From Candidatus Rokuibacteriota bacterium (GTDB lineage Bacteria > Methylomirabilota > Methylomirabilia > Rokubacteriales > JACPHL01): DNA of 33,153 bases. Below, in pieces: positions 9,213-31,788 of this stretch; positions within the stretch are counted from its first letter, which is position 1; every line of letters begins with the position of its first letter. The stretch is from positions 1 through 33,153 of the forward strand of contig JACPHL010000115.1 of the NCBI GenBank assembly GCA_016188625.1, written 5' to 3'. The position numbers and the translations under genes are program-made. The notes under the pieces are model-generated. The model was not told the origin of the DNA, ran no database searches, and saw only the letters and a program-made list of their open reading frames with translations.

Positions 9213-9242
9213 GGCCTAGCTATGTGTTCGAGTAAAGTATCC

Positions 9243-9346
9243 GGGGGGAGGCAGGCCCCGAAGCCTTTCGCCAGCGGCGAAGCCGGCCTGGCGAAAGGTG
9301 GGCTTCGCCCAGGGCCGTCGGAAGGGGGGCAGAGCCCCCCTCCGAG
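9243..9346 (+). repeat. Structured intergenic repeat, copy 2 (long form)
   Basis: Near-identical to copy 3 over about 100 nt. Central hairpin TTTCGCCAG...CTGGCGAAA and 3' hairpin GGAAGGGGGG-CAGAG-CCCCCCTCC. It ends 6 nt before the lepB ATG. Confidence 0.85.
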
Positions 9347-9352
9347 TTAGAT

Positions 9353-10015
9353 ATGGATCCCGAGGTCAAGCCCGACCCTAAACCGGACGCCGACCCGGAC
9401 GCGACGCCCGCGCCCCGGGCCGCGGTGCGGCGGAAGTCCGTCCTCCGCGAGTACCTGGAGGCGATCCTCATCGCCGTCCTCCTGGCCCTCCTCATCCGCA
9501 CCTTCGTCGTCCAGGCCTTCAAGATCCCCTCCGGCTCCATGATCCCGAGCCTCCAGGTGGGGGACCACATCCTGGTCAACAAGTTCATCTACCGCTTCCG
9601 GGACCCCGGGCGCGGGGACGTCATCGTCTTCAAGTACCCGGTGGACGAATCCCGCGATTTCATCAAGCGGGTGATCGCGGTGGGTGGGGAGGACCTCTAC
9701 ATCAAAGGGCAGGAGGTCTACATCAACTGCCAGCCCCCCGAGACCGGCTGCCGCCCGCTGGAGGAGCCCTGGGCCTACTACGACGAGCGGCCGGTGGCCT
9801 CGGAGACCTTCGGCCCGGTCCACGTCCCCCCCGATGCCTACTTCGTCATGGGGGACAACCGGAACAACAGCCAGGACAGCCGCTTCTGGGGGTTCGTCCG
9901 GCGCGAGAAGGTGAAGGGGAAGGCCTTCATCATCTACTGGTCGTGGGATGGGGAGACGGGCAGTCCGCTCTGGGAGAAGGTCCGGTGGTCGCGGCTGGGG
10001 CGGCTGATCCCCTGA
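9353..10015 (+). CDS. lepB: Signal peptidase I
   Basis: SGSMIPSLQVGD (Ser nucleophile box), KRVIAVGGE (Lys box) and GDNRNNSQDSRFWG. Confidence 0.93.
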   Translation: MDPEVKPDPKPDADPDATPAPRAAVRRKSVLREYLEAILIAVLLALLIRTFVVQAFKIPSGSMIPSLQVGDHILVNKFIYRFRDPGRGDVIVFKYPVDESRDFIKRVIAVGGEDLYIKGQEVYINCQPPETGCRPLEEPWAYYDERPVASETFGPVHVPPDAYFVMGDNRNNSQDSRFWGFVRREKVKGKAFIIYWSWDGETGSPLWEKVRWSRLGRLIP

Positions 10016-12922: not shown

Positions 12923-14020
12923 ATGGCCGCCCCCCGCGACTACTACGAGATCCTGGGCGTCCCGCGCACCGCCGACGAGACGGCGCTCAAGAAGGCCTAC
13001 CGGCAGCTCGCCCTGAAGTACCACCCCGACCGGAACCCGGGGGACCGGCAGGCCGAGGAGCGCTTCAAGGAGGTCAGCGAGGCCTACGCCGTCCTCTCGG
13101 ACCCGGAGAAGCGCGCCCAGTACGACCGGTTCGGCCGGGTCGATCTCCCCCCGGGGGTGGACTTCGGCTTTCCCGGCTTCGGCGACCTCTTCGAGGACCT
13201 CTTCGAGGGCTTCCTCGGCGGCCCCCGCGATCGCCGGCCCCGGCCGCGGCGCGGCGCGGACCTCCGCTACGACCTGGAGATCTCCCTCGAGGAGGCGGCC
13301 GAGGGGTTGGAGACCCGGATCCAGATCCCCCGCGCCGAGCCCTGCGGGCGGTGCCGGGGATCGGGGCTCGAGCCGGGGACGCGGAAGGTCACCTGCGCCA
13401 CGTGCGCCGGGCGCGGCCAGATCCGCTACACCCAGGGGTTCCTCACCGTCGCCCGGACCTGCCCCCACTGCGGCGGCGAGGGCGAGCTGAACCGGAGCCC
13501 GTGCCCCGACTGTCGGGGCGAGGGGCGGGTCGGCCGGGAGCACCTGCTCCGGGTCAAGATCCCGGCGGGGATCGAGGACGGCTCCCAGCTTCGCCTCGCG
13601 GGCGAGGGGGAAGCCGGCGCGCGCGGCGGGCCGCCGGGGGATCTCTACGTCGTCGTCCACCTCCGGGAGCACCCCCTCTTCGCCCGGCGCGGCGCCGACC
13701 TCCTCTGCGACCTCCCCGCCACCTTCCCCCAGGCCGCCCTGGGGGCCGAGGTCGAGGTCCCCCTCCTCCGGGGCACGGCCACCCTCCCGATCCCCCCCGG
13801 GACCCAGAACGGCGAGATCCTGCGCCTGCGGGGGAAGGGGATGCCCCACCTGCGCGGGCGGGGGCGGGGCGACGCCTGCTTCCGGGTCCTGGTCGAGGTC
13901 CCCACCGAGCTCACCCCCCGCCAGCGCGAGCTCCTCGAGGAGTTCGAGCGGGCGGGCCAGGAGGGCGGCTCCATGGTCGCCCGCTTCCGCGAGCAGTGGA
14001 AGAAGCTCCTAGGCGGATGA
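12923..14020 (+). CDS. dnaJ: Molecular chaperone DnaJ
   Basis: J-domain DYYEILGV...YHPDRNPGD, a G/F region, and four CxxCxGxG zinc-finger repeats ([32 protein letters not shown]). Confidence 0.96.
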
Positions 14021-14114
14021 GCCACCCGCCTCTTCCTGTCGCCCCCCGCCCGCGGCCCCGGGCGGTGGGGGGGGTTGGGGGAGGAGCGACGCCGCTCCCC
14101 CCCAAGGTGGACTA

Positions 14115-14999
14115 GTGAGCGCGCCGACGTTCTGGGCGCTCCGCGTGAGCCTCGCGCCCGGGACCGTCGAGGGCGTGACCAACTTCCTCTGGGAGGCCGG
14201 GGCGAGCGGGGTCATCGAGGAGGCCCCGGGCCCGCTGGCCACGCTGGAGGCCCACTTCCCCCCGGGGACCGATCCCGCCCTGACCGAGACCCGGCTGCTC
14301 GCCTATCTCGACGCCCTCCGGGCCCTGGGGCTCCCCGTGGGGCCGGGCGCCGTCCATGCCCGGCTCGTCCCCGACGAGGCGTGGGCCGAGGCGTGGCGGG
14401 CCCACTTCGTCCCCCGCCGGGTGGGGGAGCGACTCTGGGTCTGCCCGCCTTGGGACCGCCCGCCCGCCGGCCCCGGGGAGGTCGTGGTCGAGATCGACCC
14501 CGGCCGGGCCTTCGGGACCGGCGCCCACGCCACGACCCTCGGGTGCCTCGAGCTCGCCGCCTCGCTCCTCGCCACCACCGCCGGCCCGGCGGTCCTCGAC
14601 GTCGGCACCGGGAGCGGGATCCTCGCCGTCGCCTGCGCCAAGCTCGGCGCGGCCTCCGTGCTGGCGATCGACCTGGATCCCGACGCCGTGCGCGCGGCCG
14701 AGGCCAACGCCCTCCGGAACGGCGTGGCCCGCCAGGTGACGGTCGCCCTCGCCACGCCGGAGGAGCTGGACGGGGTGCGGGTCCCGCTCATCCTGGCCAA
14801 CCTCCTGGCCCCCGCCATCGAGCGGCTGGCCCCCCAGTTCGCCCGTCTCGCCGGGCGCCCGGGCTGGCTCATCGCCGGGGGGGTGTTGACCACGGAGGTG
14901 GGCCCGGTCGAGACCGCCCTGGGGCGCGTCGGCTTTCGCCCCTGCCGGCGGCTCGACCGGGAGGGGTGGGCGACCCTGCTCCTCGCGCGGGACGGGTAG
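14115..14999 (+). CDS. prmA: Ribosomal protein L11 methyltransferase
   Basis: IDPGRAFGTGAHATT and the SAM motif VLDVGTGSGILAVACAKLGA. Length and the synteny after dnaJ both fit PrmA. Confidence 0.9.
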   Translation: MSAPTFWALRVSLAPGTVEGVTNFLWEAGASGVIEEAPGPLATLEAHFPPGTDPALTETRLLAYLDALRALGLPVGPGAVHARLVPDEAWAEAWRAHFVPRRVGERLWVCPPWDRPPAGPGEVVVEIDPGRAFGTGAHATTLGCLELAASLLATTAGPAVLDVGTGSGILAVACAKLGAASVLAIDLDPDAVRAAEANALRNGVARQVTVALATPEELDGVRVPLILANLLAPAIERLAPQFARLAGRPGWLIAGGVLTTEVGPVETALGRVGFRPCRRLDREGWATLLLARDG

Positions 15000-15732: not shown

Positions 15733-16647
15733 ATGGAGCTTCAATCGACGATTCGCAAGCAGGTCGGGTGCCAGGGGATCGGCCTTCACACCGGTGAGCC
15801 GGTCCACCTGACCCTTCAGCCGGCCCCGCCCGACAGCGGCGTCCTCTTCCGCCTCCTCCCCCCCGGGGTGGACATCCTGGTGGGCCCTGATGCGCTTCTG
15901 AACGGCCATTACGCCACGACCCTGGGGTGGGACGGGGTCCAGGTCCAGACCGTCGAGCACCTCCTGGCCGCGGTCGCGGCGCTCGGCATCGACAACCTGC
16001 GCGTGGAGGTCGAAGGGGTCGAGCTCCCGGCGATGGACGGGAGCGCCAAGCCGTACGTGGACCTCCTCTACGCGGCGGGGCGGGAGGGGCAGGCCGCTCC
16101 CCGCCGTCCCCTCTACGTGAAGGAGGAGATCCGCGTCGGGGACGACGCGCGCTGGATCCAGATCTCGCCGGCCACCGAGACCCGGATCAGCTACACCCTG
16201 GACCTGGACCACCCCGTGGTGGGGGTCCAGATCGCTTCGTTCGCCCCCACCGAGCGGGTCTTCGTGGAGGAGCTGGCCTCCGCCCGGACGTACGGGTTCC
16301 TCAAGGACGTCGAGCTGCTCCGCCAGCAGGGGCTGGCCCGGGGCGGGTCGCTGGAGAACGCCGTGGTGGTCGGCCAGGAGCGGGTCCTGAACGGCTCGCT
16401 CCGCTTCCGCGACGAGTTCGTCCGCCACAAGATCCTCGACGTGGTCGGGGACCTGGCCCTCCTGGGGCGGCCGGTGGTCGGGCATGTGGTGGCGCGCAAC
16501 GCCGGCCACGCCCTGAACCACCAGCTGGTCCGTGAGGTCCACCGGCGGGCCGCGGGGTGGGAGCGTGGCGTGGTCGCCGCCCTCCACCACCCGGTCGGCC
16601 GCTCCGAGGGCGAGCCGAGACTCCACCCCGGCCTGGCCGCCGTCTAG
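15733..16647 (+). CDS. lpxC: UDP-3-O-acyl-N-acetylglucosamine deacetylase
   Basis: GGGAGG ribosome-binding site. TIRKQVGCQGIGLHTGEPV, the HKILDVVGDLALLG motif and ARNAGHALNHQL are typical LpxC features. Confidence 0.94.
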   Translation: MELQSTIRKQVGCQGIGLHTGEPVHLTLQPAPPDSGVLFRLLPPGVDILVGPDALLNGHYATTLGWDGVQVQTVEHLLAAVAALGIDNLRVEVEGVELPAMDGSAKPYVDLLYAAGREGQAAPRRPLYVKEEIRVGDDARWIQISPATETRISYTLDLDHPVVGVQIASFAPTERVFVEELASARTYGFLKDVELLRQQGLARGGSLENAVVVGQERVLNGSLRFRDEFVRHKILDVVGDLALLGRPVVGHVVARNAGHALNHQLVREVHRRAAGWERGVVAALHHPVGRSEGEPRLHPGLAAV

Positions 16648-16653
16648 CCGCCT

Positions 16654-16759
16654 CTTGGGGGAGGCAGGCCCCGAAGCCTTTCGCCAGCGGCGAAGCCGGA
16701 CTGGCGAAAGGTGGGCTTCGCCCAGGGCCGTCGGAAGGGGGGCGGAGCCCCCCTCCGAG
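16654..16759 (+). repeat. Structured intergenic repeat, copy 3 (long form)
   Basis: Starts 7 nt after the lpxC stop and is near-identical to copy 2. Differences are one G fewer in the head, GGCCTGG vs GGACTGG, and loop CGGAG vs CAGAG. Confidence 0.85.
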
Positions 16760-16772
16760 TTTCTCTTTCTCC

Positions 16773-16802
16773 TTCCTTCCCTTTCGTCGCCGGCGCTATA
16801 AT
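16773..16802 (+). promoter_or_regulatory. Possible promoter with perfect -10 TATAAT close to the DUF4390 start
   Basis: TATAAT at 16797-16802 lies 9 nt before ATG 16812. The -35 is weak (TTCCTT). It is preceded by a 26-nt all-pyrimidine tract (16760-16785). Confidence 0.35.
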
Positions 16803-16811
16803 GATTGATCC

Positions 16812-21118: not shown

Positions 21119-21786
<668 letters not shown>

Positions 21787-30587: not shown

Positions 30588-30944
30588 CTGAGCCGCGAGC
30601 AAGGGGTCAAGGCCGACGGGATCCCCTTCAACCACGCCAGCGAGCGGGAGTTCGCCGAGCTGCTCAGCTACTACGGGGTGGCCTGGCAGTACGAGCCCCA
30701 GACCTTCCCGCTGGAGTGGGACGAGGCCGGCCGGGTCACCGAGGCCTTCACTCCCGACTTCTACCTCCCCGAGGAGGACCTCTACATCGAGCTGACGACG
30801 AAGCAGCAGCGGCTCATCACCGAGAAGCACCGGAAGATCCGGAAGCTCCAGGCCCTCCACCCGGACGTCCGGATCAAGCTCCTCCGGCGCCAGGACTACC
30901 TGGCCCTGGCCCGGCGGTTCGGCTGGCGGCCCCCGGAGCCCTAG
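30588..30944 (+). CDS. Conserved hypothetical protein with a PD-(D/E)xK-nuclease-like motif; non-canonical start
   Basis: The track gives 30678..30944, but clearly protein-like sequence (GIPFNHASEREFAELLSYYG) continues upstream in frame with no ATG or GTG. CTG 30588 lies 7 nt after GGAGGGG. The PDFYLPEEDLYIELTTK block resembles D...ExK. Confidence 0.5.
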   Translation: MSREQGVKADGIPFNHASEREFAELLSYYGVAWQYEPQTFPLEWDEAGRVTEAFTPDFYLPEEDLYIELTTKQQRLITEKHRKIRKLQALHPDVRIKLLRRQDYLALARRFGWRPPEP

Positions 30945-30946
30945 GG

Positions 30947-31096
30947 GGGATTATTCGTGAACGGCTTCCCGCGAGGCGGACGGGTCCTGTCACGCCGGGC
31001 AGCCCCACTCGGCTCGCCACCCCCGCCCGGTGTTGGGGCGCCCCGCCCGGCGCGCCACCCGTCCGCCGTCCGCTGGCGGCGTTCACGAATAATCCC
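30947..31096. repeat. 150-nt long imperfect hairpin / MITE-like element with 16-bp perfect terminal inverted repeats
   Basis: GGGATTATTCGTGAAC (30947-30962) is the exact reverse complement of 31081-31096. Inner stems are GGCGGACGGGT/ACCCGTCCGCC (30975-85 / 31057-67) and CGCCGGGC/GCCCGGCG (30993-31000 / 31045-52). Confidence 0.75.
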
Positions 31097-31198
31097 GGCT
31101 GGGATTCTGGCCGGATGACACCGAGGTGGCTCCGTGCTCTTGACCCTCGGCTCGCGGATGGACTGTTCCGTTTCGAGCGCCGGCTTCGCCGGCGCAAC

Positions 31199-31241
31199 CT
31201 TGGGGGGAGGTTCGGAAGGGGGGCGTAAGCCCCCCTCCGAG
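31199..31241 (+). repeat. Structured intergenic repeat, copy 4 (short form: head plus 3' hairpin only)
   Basis: CTTGGGGGGAGG-TTCGGAAGGGGGG-CGTAAG-CCCCCCTCCGAG lacks the central hairpin and ends 7 nt before the hpt ATG. Confidence 0.65.
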
Positions 31242-31248
31242 GAGAAAG

Positions 31249-31788
31249 ATGCTGGACGACCTGGCCGAGATCCTGCTGACCCCCGAGGAGATCGCGACCG
31301 AGGTCGAGCGGCTCGCCGCCCGCCTCGTCCGGGACTACGAGGGGCAGACGCCGCTCCTGGTCGGCGTCCTCAAGGGCTCCGCCGTCTTCCTGGCCGACCT
31401 GGTCCGCGCCCTTCCCCTCCCCGTCGCCGTGGACTTCATCTCCGTGGCCGGCTACGGGGCCGAGCGCTCGACCTCGGGCGTGGTCCGGATCCGGAAGGAC
31501 CTGGACGAGAACATCGAGGGGCGGGATGTCCTCATCGTGGAGGGGATCATCGACACCGGGCTCACCCTCTCGTACCTCTTGCGGAACTTCAGGACCCGGC
31601 AGCCGCGCTCGCTCCGGGTCTGCGCCTTCCTCGACAAGCCCGCCCAGCGGATCATCGACCTCCAGGTGGACTACGTGGGGCGGCGGATTCCGGATCGCTT
31701 CGTGGTCGGCTACGGCCTCGACTACCGCGAGCGGTACCGGAACCTCCCCCTGATCGGCGTGCTGAAGGCGTCGGTCCTGGACCGCTGA
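31249..31788 (+). CDS. hpt: Hypoxanthine phosphoribosyltransferase
   Basis: LLVGVLKGSAVFLADL and the PRPP motif VLIVEGIIDTGLTLSYL, with YGLDYRERYRNLP at the C-terminus. Confidence 0.94.
   Translation: MLDDLAEILLTPEEIATEVERLAARLVRDYEGQTPLLVGVLKGSAVFLADLVRALPLPVAVDFISVAGYGAERSTSGVVRIRKDLDENIEGRDVLIVEGIIDTGLTLSYLLRNFRTRQPRSLRVCAFLDKPAQRIIDLQVDYVGRRIPDRFVVGYGLDYRERYRNLPLIGVLKASVLDR

Follow-up and report, generated by a model that had tools for sequence, protein, structure and literature searches.

Mosaic hairpin-forming intergenic repeats with REP-like features in Rokubacteria

Four copies of a GC-rich element and its modular architecture

A 33,153-nucleotide stretch of DNA from a Candidatus Rokuibacteriota bacterium (contig JACPHL010000115.1 of assembly GCA_016188625.1, positions 1 to 33,153 of the forward strand; hereafter the window), with a G+C content of ~72%, contains four copies of a hairpin-forming intergenic element. 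All four lie on the + strand between co-directional genes, sense to their neighbors, which were assigned by Pfam. Copy 1 (2794–2887) separates ugd, encoding UDP-glucose dehydrogenase (1401–2711), from an NAD-dependent epimerase gene starting at 2895 or 2898. Copy 2 (9227–9346) occupies the gap between lepA (stop codon 9210–9212) and lepB, the signal peptidase I gene, whose ATG at 9353 is 6 nt past the element. Copy 3 (16654–16759) begins 6 nt after the lpxC stop codon (16645–16647) and precedes a DUF4390/NtrY gene, and copy 4 (31137–31241) lies between an unassigned region and an hpt-like phosphoribosyltransferase gene with a start codon at 31249, 7 nt past the element. The original prediction of four copies at these positions was borne out. 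The 29-nt tail TCGGAAGGGGGGCNNAGCCCCCCTCCGAG occurs three times (2859–2887, 9318–9346, and 16731–16759), compared with 0.00 expected from 100 dinucleotide-preserving shuffles; the tail of copy 4 has a 4-nt loop and is therefore missed by this pattern, but a covariance model scores the copy at 87.7 bits. Each copy folds more stably than its own shuffles (z = −3.4 to −4.4). A covariance-model scan of the whole window with filters off returned the four copies and one weak + strand match at 14066–14103 (16.8 bits, E = 0.044). This hairpin, TGGGGGGGGTT-GGGGGAGGAGCG-ACG-CCGCTCCCCCCC, lies in the gap between a gene ending at 14020 and one starting at 14115 and is either a possible relative or a generic G-run/C-run hairpin.

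The unit is a mosaic of 75–120 bp that reads, from 5′ to 3′, as an optional left module, TTCGAG with a first hairpin (HP1), a spacer, a G-box, an optional core hairpin, and a second hairpin (HP2). In the family consensus, the start T(T/C)CGAG is followed by HP1, GCGCSGGC-TTY-GCCSGCGC, an 8-bp stem with a 3-nt loop. The sequence AA and a pyrimidine-rich spacer of 6–12 nt lead to the G-box GGGGGGAGG and, after a further 1–2 nt, to HP2 (UCGGA-A-GGGGGGC, a loop, and GCCCCCC-UCCGA, then G), which has a 12-bp stem with one bulged A and a CTCCGAG end. Information content drops sharply to background just left of TTCGAG and just right of CTCCGAG, and these ends of the full unit are direct repeats of one another. 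The left module of ~35 nt, present in the window at 31137–31171, recurs in other loci (L195, L066, L079, L030, L104, and L044). In long forms, an additional hairpin separates GGAGG-CAG from C-GUC-GGAAGG. The insert seen most often, the type-B core, has the form CAG-GGAG-GA-(7-bp stem)-GA-CGACC-G, and the type-A core of window copies 1–3 is a three-way junction with GCCCC/GGGGC as its outer stem, a variable hairpin, and, at the apex, a hairpin resembling HP1. The core inserts are always self-closing, so the G-box stays beside HP2.

The G-box repeats the nine paired purines from the 5′ arm of HP2 in exact mirror order, both in the canonical subfamily with six Gs and in a subfamily with five (HP2′). 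Because it is a mirror and not an inverted repeat of the arm, it is a poor Watson–Crick rival for the C-run. The proposal that the head and tail G-runs compete for the single C-run, giving two mutually exclusive folds, does not hold at equilibrium in the short form: in copy 4, pairing of the G-box with the C-run costs 9.1 kcal/mol relative to HP2 and is essentially unpopulated in the ensemble, and head–tail pairing appears in the predicted minimum-energy fold of copy 1 only. Mirror symmetry is what a purine-motif triplex or a Shine–Dalgarno function would use, and, judged from the sequence, the G-box and HP2 could form such a triplex intramolecularly in single-stranded DNA.

The window copies sample several of these forms. 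Copy 1 lacks HP1 and consists of a G-box (2797–2805), a three-way-junction core (2806–2858), and HP2 (2859–2887). Copy 2 retains a TTCGAG remnant (9227–9232) from which the HP1 stem is gone, followed by the G-box (9243–9251), core (9252–9317), and HP2 (9318–9346). In copy 3, the G-box lies at 16657–16664 and HP2 at 16731–16759. The head module that had been described as shared is present in the copies, but it is not uniform: copy 3 has GGGGGAGG, one G short, and copy 2 has CCGGGGGGAGG in place of CTTGG. Copy 4 lacks a core, as first noted, but is longer than the short form originally outlined. An HP1 half, TTCGAG with GCGCCGGC-TTC-GCCGGCGC (31172–31195), lies directly upstream; the parts are the left module, TTCGAG (31172–31177), the HP1 stem-loop (31177–31195), spacer (31196–31201), G-box (31202–31210), and HP2 (31212–31241). 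With this canonical left half in place, copy 4 represents the commonest full-length short form.

Distribution, structural conservation, and turnover of the family

The HP2 tail pattern GGAAGGGGGG-N3-7-CCCCCCTCCGA was used to scan one genome per GTDB species. The scan identified at least 110 stretches, from ~53 assemblies among the matches listed, and nearly all were labeled Candidatus Rokubacteria, Rokuibacteriota, or Methylomirabilota. A match in Pseudooceanicola contained none of the other modules and was dismissed as chance. The family counts given below rest on 117 exact-tail copies in loci fetched from the listed matches, each locus at most 8 kb long, and a covariance-model search of the same loci added ~20 copies outside the exact pattern. 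The 33-kb window has four copies, and among the matches listed at least eight loci come from one metagenome-assembled genome (MAG). Full copies were also found on contigs binned as Nitrospirae, Deferrimicrobiaceae, Acidoferrum (two), and the archaeon Nitrosotalea (L024, L032, L033, L065, and L103); most likely, these are mis-binned Rokubacteria contigs. No family match was found among viral contigs. An Rfam search (release 15) of the whole window gave no matches at the gathering threshold; the best sub-threshold scores were 21–24 bits against thresholds of 70–77, and permissive thresholds likewise yielded nothing. In the literature searched, no paper was found linking Rokubacteria or Methylomirabilota to repetitive extragenic palindromic (REP) sequences, MITEs (miniature transposable elements bearing inverted repeats), or palindromic repeats. 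Rokubacteria are abundant in soil and groundwater; to our knowledge, they have no cultured representative, and their genome biology is known from MAGs only. The repeats appear to be a large family, so far undescribed, in an uncultured group. No exact-protein record was found for the LepB, LepA, Ugd, or epimerase proteins of the window.

Among the 117 copies, 66 are short forms with HP1, 21 are long forms with HP1, and 30 lack HP1, 10 of these lacking the G-box as well. The modules recombine, as is evident from solo HP1 and HP2-only copies, dimers, and head-to-tail arrays (three units in L100, two in L087, and another array in L039). The genes between paired copies are ordinary ones, encoding a thioredoxin, a sigma-54 regulator, and ABC transporter subunits. 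The model search also recovered an HP2 variant in L083 whose closing pair has changed from U-A to C-G by compensation, and the HP2′ subfamily, in which the hairpin is a perfect palindrome, TCGGAGGGGGCC-GYCGA-GGCCCCCTCCGA.

The expectation that structure is maintained while sequence changes was upheld by several stems. HP2 pairing was fixed by the search pattern in the seed copies, so the evidence for covariation comes from the other stems. Pair 13–23 of HP1 is never broken, being formed as G-C in 34 copies and as C-G in 30, and 99.5% of all HP1 cells are paired, compared with ~51% after the partners are shifted by a single column. Among type-B long forms, pairing holds in 98.5% of cells, both sides have changed at five pairs, and the cores show 12 extra pair types against 7.6 ± 1.1 in shuffled alignments, a value reached in 0 of 500 shuffles. 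Type-A cores keep one architecture with differing sequences, and the stem of their apex hairpin (xGGC-TTY-GCCx) covaries among relatives. The evidence that the stems covary is strong, although it comes from shuffle controls that leave the kinship between copies in place. The more specific claim about the core survived in part: the outer GCCCC/GGGGC stem is conserved across relatives, but the proposed GAAGCC...GGCTTC pairing is unsupported because changes on its 5′ side (GATCC, GATGC, and GAGCC) find no counterpart on the 3′ side.

Occupancy differs between close relatives. The lepA–lepB gap is 140 nt long with copy 2 in the window, compared with 9, 13, and 9 nt, all element-free, in L087, L111, and L112, and the L087 flanks share 85–87% nucleotide identity with the window. 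In another comparison, L025 carries an element at a place that is empty in L028, where the stop and start codons overlap as TGATG. In the window, an ATG at 9222 lies 9 nt past the lepA stop, which is the spacing of the lepB start in relatives with an empty gap. It opens a 42-codon open reading frame (ORF; 9222–9349) that crosses all of copy 2 and stops at TAG 9347–9349, 3 nt before the lepB ATG. This would fit an insertion of copy 2 immediately within a former lepB start, after which a new start was recruited downstream.

The most telling difference, at the level of strains, is in the lpxC–DUF4390 gap. Two contigs from SRR22387998 (L197 and L195) are ~99% identical to the window over 950 nt, and the LpxC and DUF4390 proteins they encode are identical to those of the window. 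Their gap reads lpxC-TAA-CAGA, then a minus-oriented short form with the left module, 48 nt, and TTTCTCC; that of the window reads lpxC-TAG-CCGCCT, then the plus-oriented long copy 3 and TTTCTC. The breaks in homology fall within the stop codon (GTCTA|) and at the exact right end of the element (GAG|TTTCTC). Copy 4 is unchanged in four JGI contigs. L013 and L066, initially considered orthologues, come from one MAG; their shared flanks are paralogous and were not used as evidence of retention. Metagenome and Logan contigs were seen to end inside HP2 (at the end of L111 and L197 and at the start of L195 and L020), and because contigs repeatedly end inside copies, the repeat often breaks assemblies in this lineage.

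Placement of the element at coding boundaries

Gene context was examined with the + direction of the element defined as HP1 to HP2 and with genes in the fetched loci called by our own caller based on third-position G+C (GC3), which was checked on the window and misses some genes. Copies are in tandem gaps in sense (31) and antisense (24) orientation, in convergent gaps (16), and in divergent gaps (2). In the same loci, the element is present in 17 of the 49 convergent gaps, 61 of the 481 tandem gaps, and 1 of the 45 divergent gaps (odds ratio 3.7 for convergent versus tandem, p = 2e-4). This placement, together with the indifference to orientation, argues for a REP-like element and not a dedicated cis-regulatory RNA.

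The two ends of the element are placed very differently. Where a gene reads toward the HP2 end, its stop codon is 0–4 nt away in 48 of 63 cases; where a gene reads away, its start codon, mostly ATG, follows that end by 1–10 nt in 27 of 43. Overall, a coding boundary falls within 10 nt of the HP2 end in 75 of 106 cases compared with 9 of 101 for the HP1 end (p = 5e-21). The stop codons beside the element are also unusual in composition (TAG 26, TGA 15, and TAA 9, against TGA 374, TAG 177, and TAA 63 elsewhere in the loci; p = 4e-5); both of these p-values are optimistic because some of the loci are related. Beyond the HP2 end, the family consensus shows a variable AT-rich patch containing start or stop codons. 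Beyond the HP1 end, a spacer with a median length of ~50 nt leads to the neighboring gene; it is unique, unstructured (median z ~0.1), and lower in G+C (~0.66). Besides the optional left module and extra copies of the element, no further conserved or structured arm was found to the left of HP1. A translated upstream ORF or read-through product was considered and rejected, since the frames ending past the element differ from upstream coding frames and have low GC3. About one-quarter of the frames ending just past the element are in phase with the upstream stop, which is the chance level.

Element-free gaps between co-directional genes in the fetched Rokubacteria loci (L001–L110) have a median of ~6 nt. 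The tightness at one side follows in part from this compactness, which does not account for the asymmetry between the ends. At orthologous gaps where relatives carry the element, unrelated G-run/C-run hairpins were found directly after the stop codon (L082 at ~790–870 compared with L037, and L114 at ~1400–1500), for example, CCCCCCTCACC...CCTCTCCCCC-TGA-GGGGGAGAGG...GGTGAGGGG. Since unrelated hairpins occur at the same stop-adjacent position, a hairpin tight on the stop codon seems to be a habit of these genomes. The placement of the HP2 end is a new feature, which might reflect a polar insertion mechanism, selection, or both. Under the selective one, the only copies to survive would be those whose G-box and HP2 give the adjoining start codon a ribosome-binding site. 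A more specific and rather doubtful proposal is a polar module that seeks gene boundaries, either through hairpin-guided insertion into single-stranded DNA that places the HP2 end within a few bases of a stop or start codon or through survival only there, making the element a reversible cassette. If so, the cassette in sense orientation would hold a Shine–Dalgarno sequence by the AUG via the folded hairpin, and in antisense orientation would set a hairpin against the stop codon. The insertion point is possibly the TA of the stop codon, since one strain comparison breaks at GTCTA| and the adjacent stops are enriched in TAG and TAA.

Origin of the repeats and relation to known systems

The favored explanation, to which we assign a probability of roughly 0.7, is a lineage-specific family of mosaic hairpin-forming intergenic repeats in Rokubacteria (Methylomirabilota) that resemble REPs, bacterial interspersed mosaic elements (BIMEs), and small non-autonomous mobile elements. 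The comparison with REP/BIME elements made in the original prediction is supported: copies are intergenic in either orientation, are mosaics of modules that also occur alone, form tandem arrays, and turn over at the level of strains. The element thus reads as mobile or rapidly turning over and non-autonomous, and not as a dedicated riboswitch or small RNA. Copies would be spread or replaced by a trans-acting enzyme that recognizes single-stranded hairpins, most plausibly an HUH/Y1 enzyme resembling the REP-associated tyrosine transposases (RAYTs), or by recombination between copies. Because the copies would be co-transcribed with their neighbors, the hairpins are expected to act on mRNA as REPs do. 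In one orientation, a very stable hairpin right after the stop codon could give 3′-end protection or partial termination; in the other, a hairpin in the 5′ leader would bring an SD-like GGAGG beside the start codon.

Several observations weigh against this explanation. No fixed target motif or target-site duplication was found beside either end, and apart from AT richness on one side the flanks carry no information. The family lacks both the GT[A/G]G head of REPs and their inverted pairing, and for that reason it is better regarded as a new one among interspersed structured intergenic repeats than as a strict REP. No transposase was detected in a phmmer search with Y1/RAYT queries against six-frame ORFs from ~1 Mb of the fetched loci. 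G·U and A·C mismatches in the stems number 11 and 5, partly from one lineage, which gives no clear sign of strand-specific selection at the RNA level. Finally, the near-invariance of HP2 and the G-box in ~50 species-level MAGs and the closeness of the HP2 end to gene boundaries are at least as compatible with selection for a host function as with a purely selfish element.

Such a function is formulated in a competing explanation, which we hold only tentatively, in which the element is a domesticated gene-boundary module. The G-box and HP2 would form a portable translation-initiation signal, with folding of HP2 bringing GGAGG beside the AUG, and in antisense orientation the hairpin 0–4 nt past the stop would modulate termination or 3′-end stability. 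Hairpin-bridged Shine–Dalgarno sequences are reported for phage T4 genes 38 and 25. The 27 of 43 co-directional genes starting 1–10 nt past the element fit this model; three of these, in the window, were verified by Pfam from their N termini, and the genes lack a linear Shine–Dalgarno sequence at normal spacing. With HP2 skipped, the unpaired distance from GGAGG to the AUG is 4–10 nt in 20 of 25 cases, with a median of 6. Short forms, with the G-box directly against HP2, account for 25 of the 32 copies beside starts compared with 27 of the 50 beside stops (p = 0.035), no old Shine–Dalgarno sequence is seen left of HP1, and the self-closing core inserts leave the G-box adjoining HP2. However, antisense and convergent copies are equally many, so a Shine–Dalgarno role cannot account for the family; the statistics are weak, with copies that are not independent, and the terminal CCGAGG might itself be a weak linear Shine–Dalgarno sequence, given a spacing of 1–2 nt to the AUG at ordinary window genes. 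A boundary role could coexist with a mobile repeat. A small structured RNA had also been raised; it would be a dedicated one, such as a riboswitch-like leader or a multicopy small RNA, active in the + orientation only. The sense orientation of all four window copies, the strong covariation, and conserved parts that are not palindromic (the bulged A and, in type-B cores, the GA...GA on either side of the inner stem), which hint that one strand matters, would favor it. It is very improbable and largely refuted by the orientation data: antisense copies in tandem contexts (24) nearly match sense copies (31), and 16 more lie in convergent gaps. In addition, the downstream genes share no consistent function (in the window they are the epimerase, signal peptidase, DUF4390, and hpt genes; the fetched loci have ABC transporters, among others), occupancy differs between close relatives, and there is no Rfam family.

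The remaining alternatives concern the origin of the hairpins. Ordinary terminators or intercistronic attenuator hairpins that came to resemble one another by convergent or concerted evolution, and not by mobility, would explain the enrichment after 3′ ends and depletion in divergent gaps, the unrelated G-run/C-run hairpins just past the stop in orthologous gaps (L082 versus L037; L114), and the presence of a canonical C-run/G-run terminator in the window (21190–21219). HP2 of copy 3 with the T-rich tract that follows it (16760–16789) is the only + strand terminator-like match there. Yet copy 3 is the only window copy with such a tract, so the copies are not canonical intrinsic terminators, and apart from it no U tract was found in either orientation. 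Many copies lie within operons right before a start codon; the conserved parts outside the stems (TTCGAG, the G-box, the bulged A, and the GA/GA flanks) and the five-module mosaic would not be expected of hairpins that evolved independently, and the strain-level swap for a different form in opposite orientation points to insertion or exchange. This explanation is unlikely. A classical MITE, derived by deletion from a DDE insertion sequence and bounded by terminal inverted repeats and target-site duplications, is less probable still. The head CTTGGGGGGAGG and the reverse-complemented tail (CTCGGAGGGGGG) agree at 9 of 12 positions, and both the size of 75–120 bp and the variable presence among relatives would suit a MITE, but no flanking duplication was seen, the ends of the full unit are direct and not inverted repeats, modules are also found alone, and insertion polarity is strongly asymmetric (75/106 versus 9/101).

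REPs of Enterobacteria, Pseudomonas, Xanthomonas, and Stenotrophomonas are associated with RAYTs and carry a GT[A/G]G head 5′ of the palindrome (PMC2817692). The Rokubacteria repeats resemble REP/BIME elements in being short, GC-rich imperfect palindromes with a conserved single-stranded head that are extragenic in either orientation, favor 3′ ends and intercistronic gaps, and avoid divergent regions. They also form mosaics and arrays with other motifs, maintain palindromy by compensation, and differ quickly between strains. HP1 (GAGCGCGGGC-TTT-GCCCGCGC) is closely similar to GTGAGCGGGCTTGCCCCGCGCT of Pseudomonas REPs (PMC2817692). They differ in the sequences preceding the hairpins, T(T/C)CGAG before HP1 and TTCGGA at HP2 in place of GT[A/G]G. 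Furthermore, HP1 and HP2 differ in sequence and keep one direct order, with head-to-tail arrays, whereas REPs repeat one sequence in inverted or alternating order, and the purine G-box mirroring the HP2 arm and the abutment of one specific end on gene boundaries are additional departures.

Modular repeats are known elsewhere. BOX elements of Streptococcus pneumoniae have the structure boxA-boxB(n)-boxC, and other modular small repeats include ERIC/IRU, Correia/NEMIS, RUP, and SMAG. The Rokubacteria family shares with BOX, ERIC, and Correia-type repeats a variable middle between conserved ends, an intergenic and co-transcribed location, stable RNA structure, and no coding capacity. It differs from BOX-type repeats in its unrelated sequence and a host of another phylum, and from Correia and ERIC in the absence of their clear terminal inverted repeats (with a TA duplication in Correia). 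MIRUs of Mycobacterium tuberculosis are operon-oriented and contain short ORFs overlapping the neighboring stop and start codons. Here, too, copies occupy short operon gaps of a high-GC genome and adjoin the flanking stop and start codons; unlike MIRUs, they occur in both orientations, and an ORF reading through the element is not general (copy 2 has one, from ATG 9222 to TAG 9347–9349). Liang, Rudd, and Deutscher reportedly showed in 2015 that E. coli REPs within ~15 nt of a stop codon stall terminating ribosomes. Judged by position, the very stable hairpin 0–4 nt past the stop in 48 of 63 convergent-type contexts is comparable, but only a subset of E. coli REPs lie so close, and closeness is the rule for one end of the Rokubacteria element. 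Integron attC sites were considered and rejected, because the termini are TTCGAG/CTCCGAG without R″/R′ core sites (RYYYAAC/GTTRRRY) and the neighbors belong to housekeeping operons (lepA–lepB and lpxC).

A high-copy, extremely stable repeat of 75–120 bp explains assembly breaks between genes in Rokubacteria, and it offers a typing target and a lineage marker that flags mis-binned contigs. It also adds a REP-like family from a phylum far from Proteobacteria, in which five modules follow a defined grammar and one end is placed against coding boundaries with unusual strictness. If this placement reflects either mechanism (hairpin-guided single-strand insertion) or function (a hairpin-bridged Shine–Dalgarno sequence or stop-adjacent hairpin), the family would offer a clean natural model of how genomes with a median operon gap of ~6 nt tolerate or co-opt selfish hairpin repeats.

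Some further features of the window adjoin these subjects. At several ordinary genes, GGAGG lies only 1–2 nt before the start codon (e.g., 15733 and 19658); Shine–Dalgarno spacing in the lineage may be unusually short, or the start calls may be imperfect. The pyrimidine-rich tract between copy 3 and the DUF4390 gene (16760–16811) contains a TTTCTC repeat with one unit fewer in another strain. A perfect TATAAT at 16797–16802 lies only 9 nt before the DUF4390 ATG, a position that suggests a very short leader, or none, for that gene. The canonical intrinsic terminator at 21190–21219, ACCCCCTCCC-GTCG-GGGAGGGGGT followed by TTTTTT, uses the same C-run/G-run vocabulary as HP2 with the order of the arms reversed. 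A long, near-perfect inverted repeat at 30947–31096 (GGGATTATTCGTGAACG...CGTTCACGAATAATCCC) surrounds a GC-rich interior of ~115 nt between a small ORF (30678–30944) and copy 4. No Rfam match was found for it, nor any clear relative in the fetched loci. Its predicted fold has an energy of −97.6 kcal/mol, and its interior contains an indel of ~20 nt among near-identical strains.

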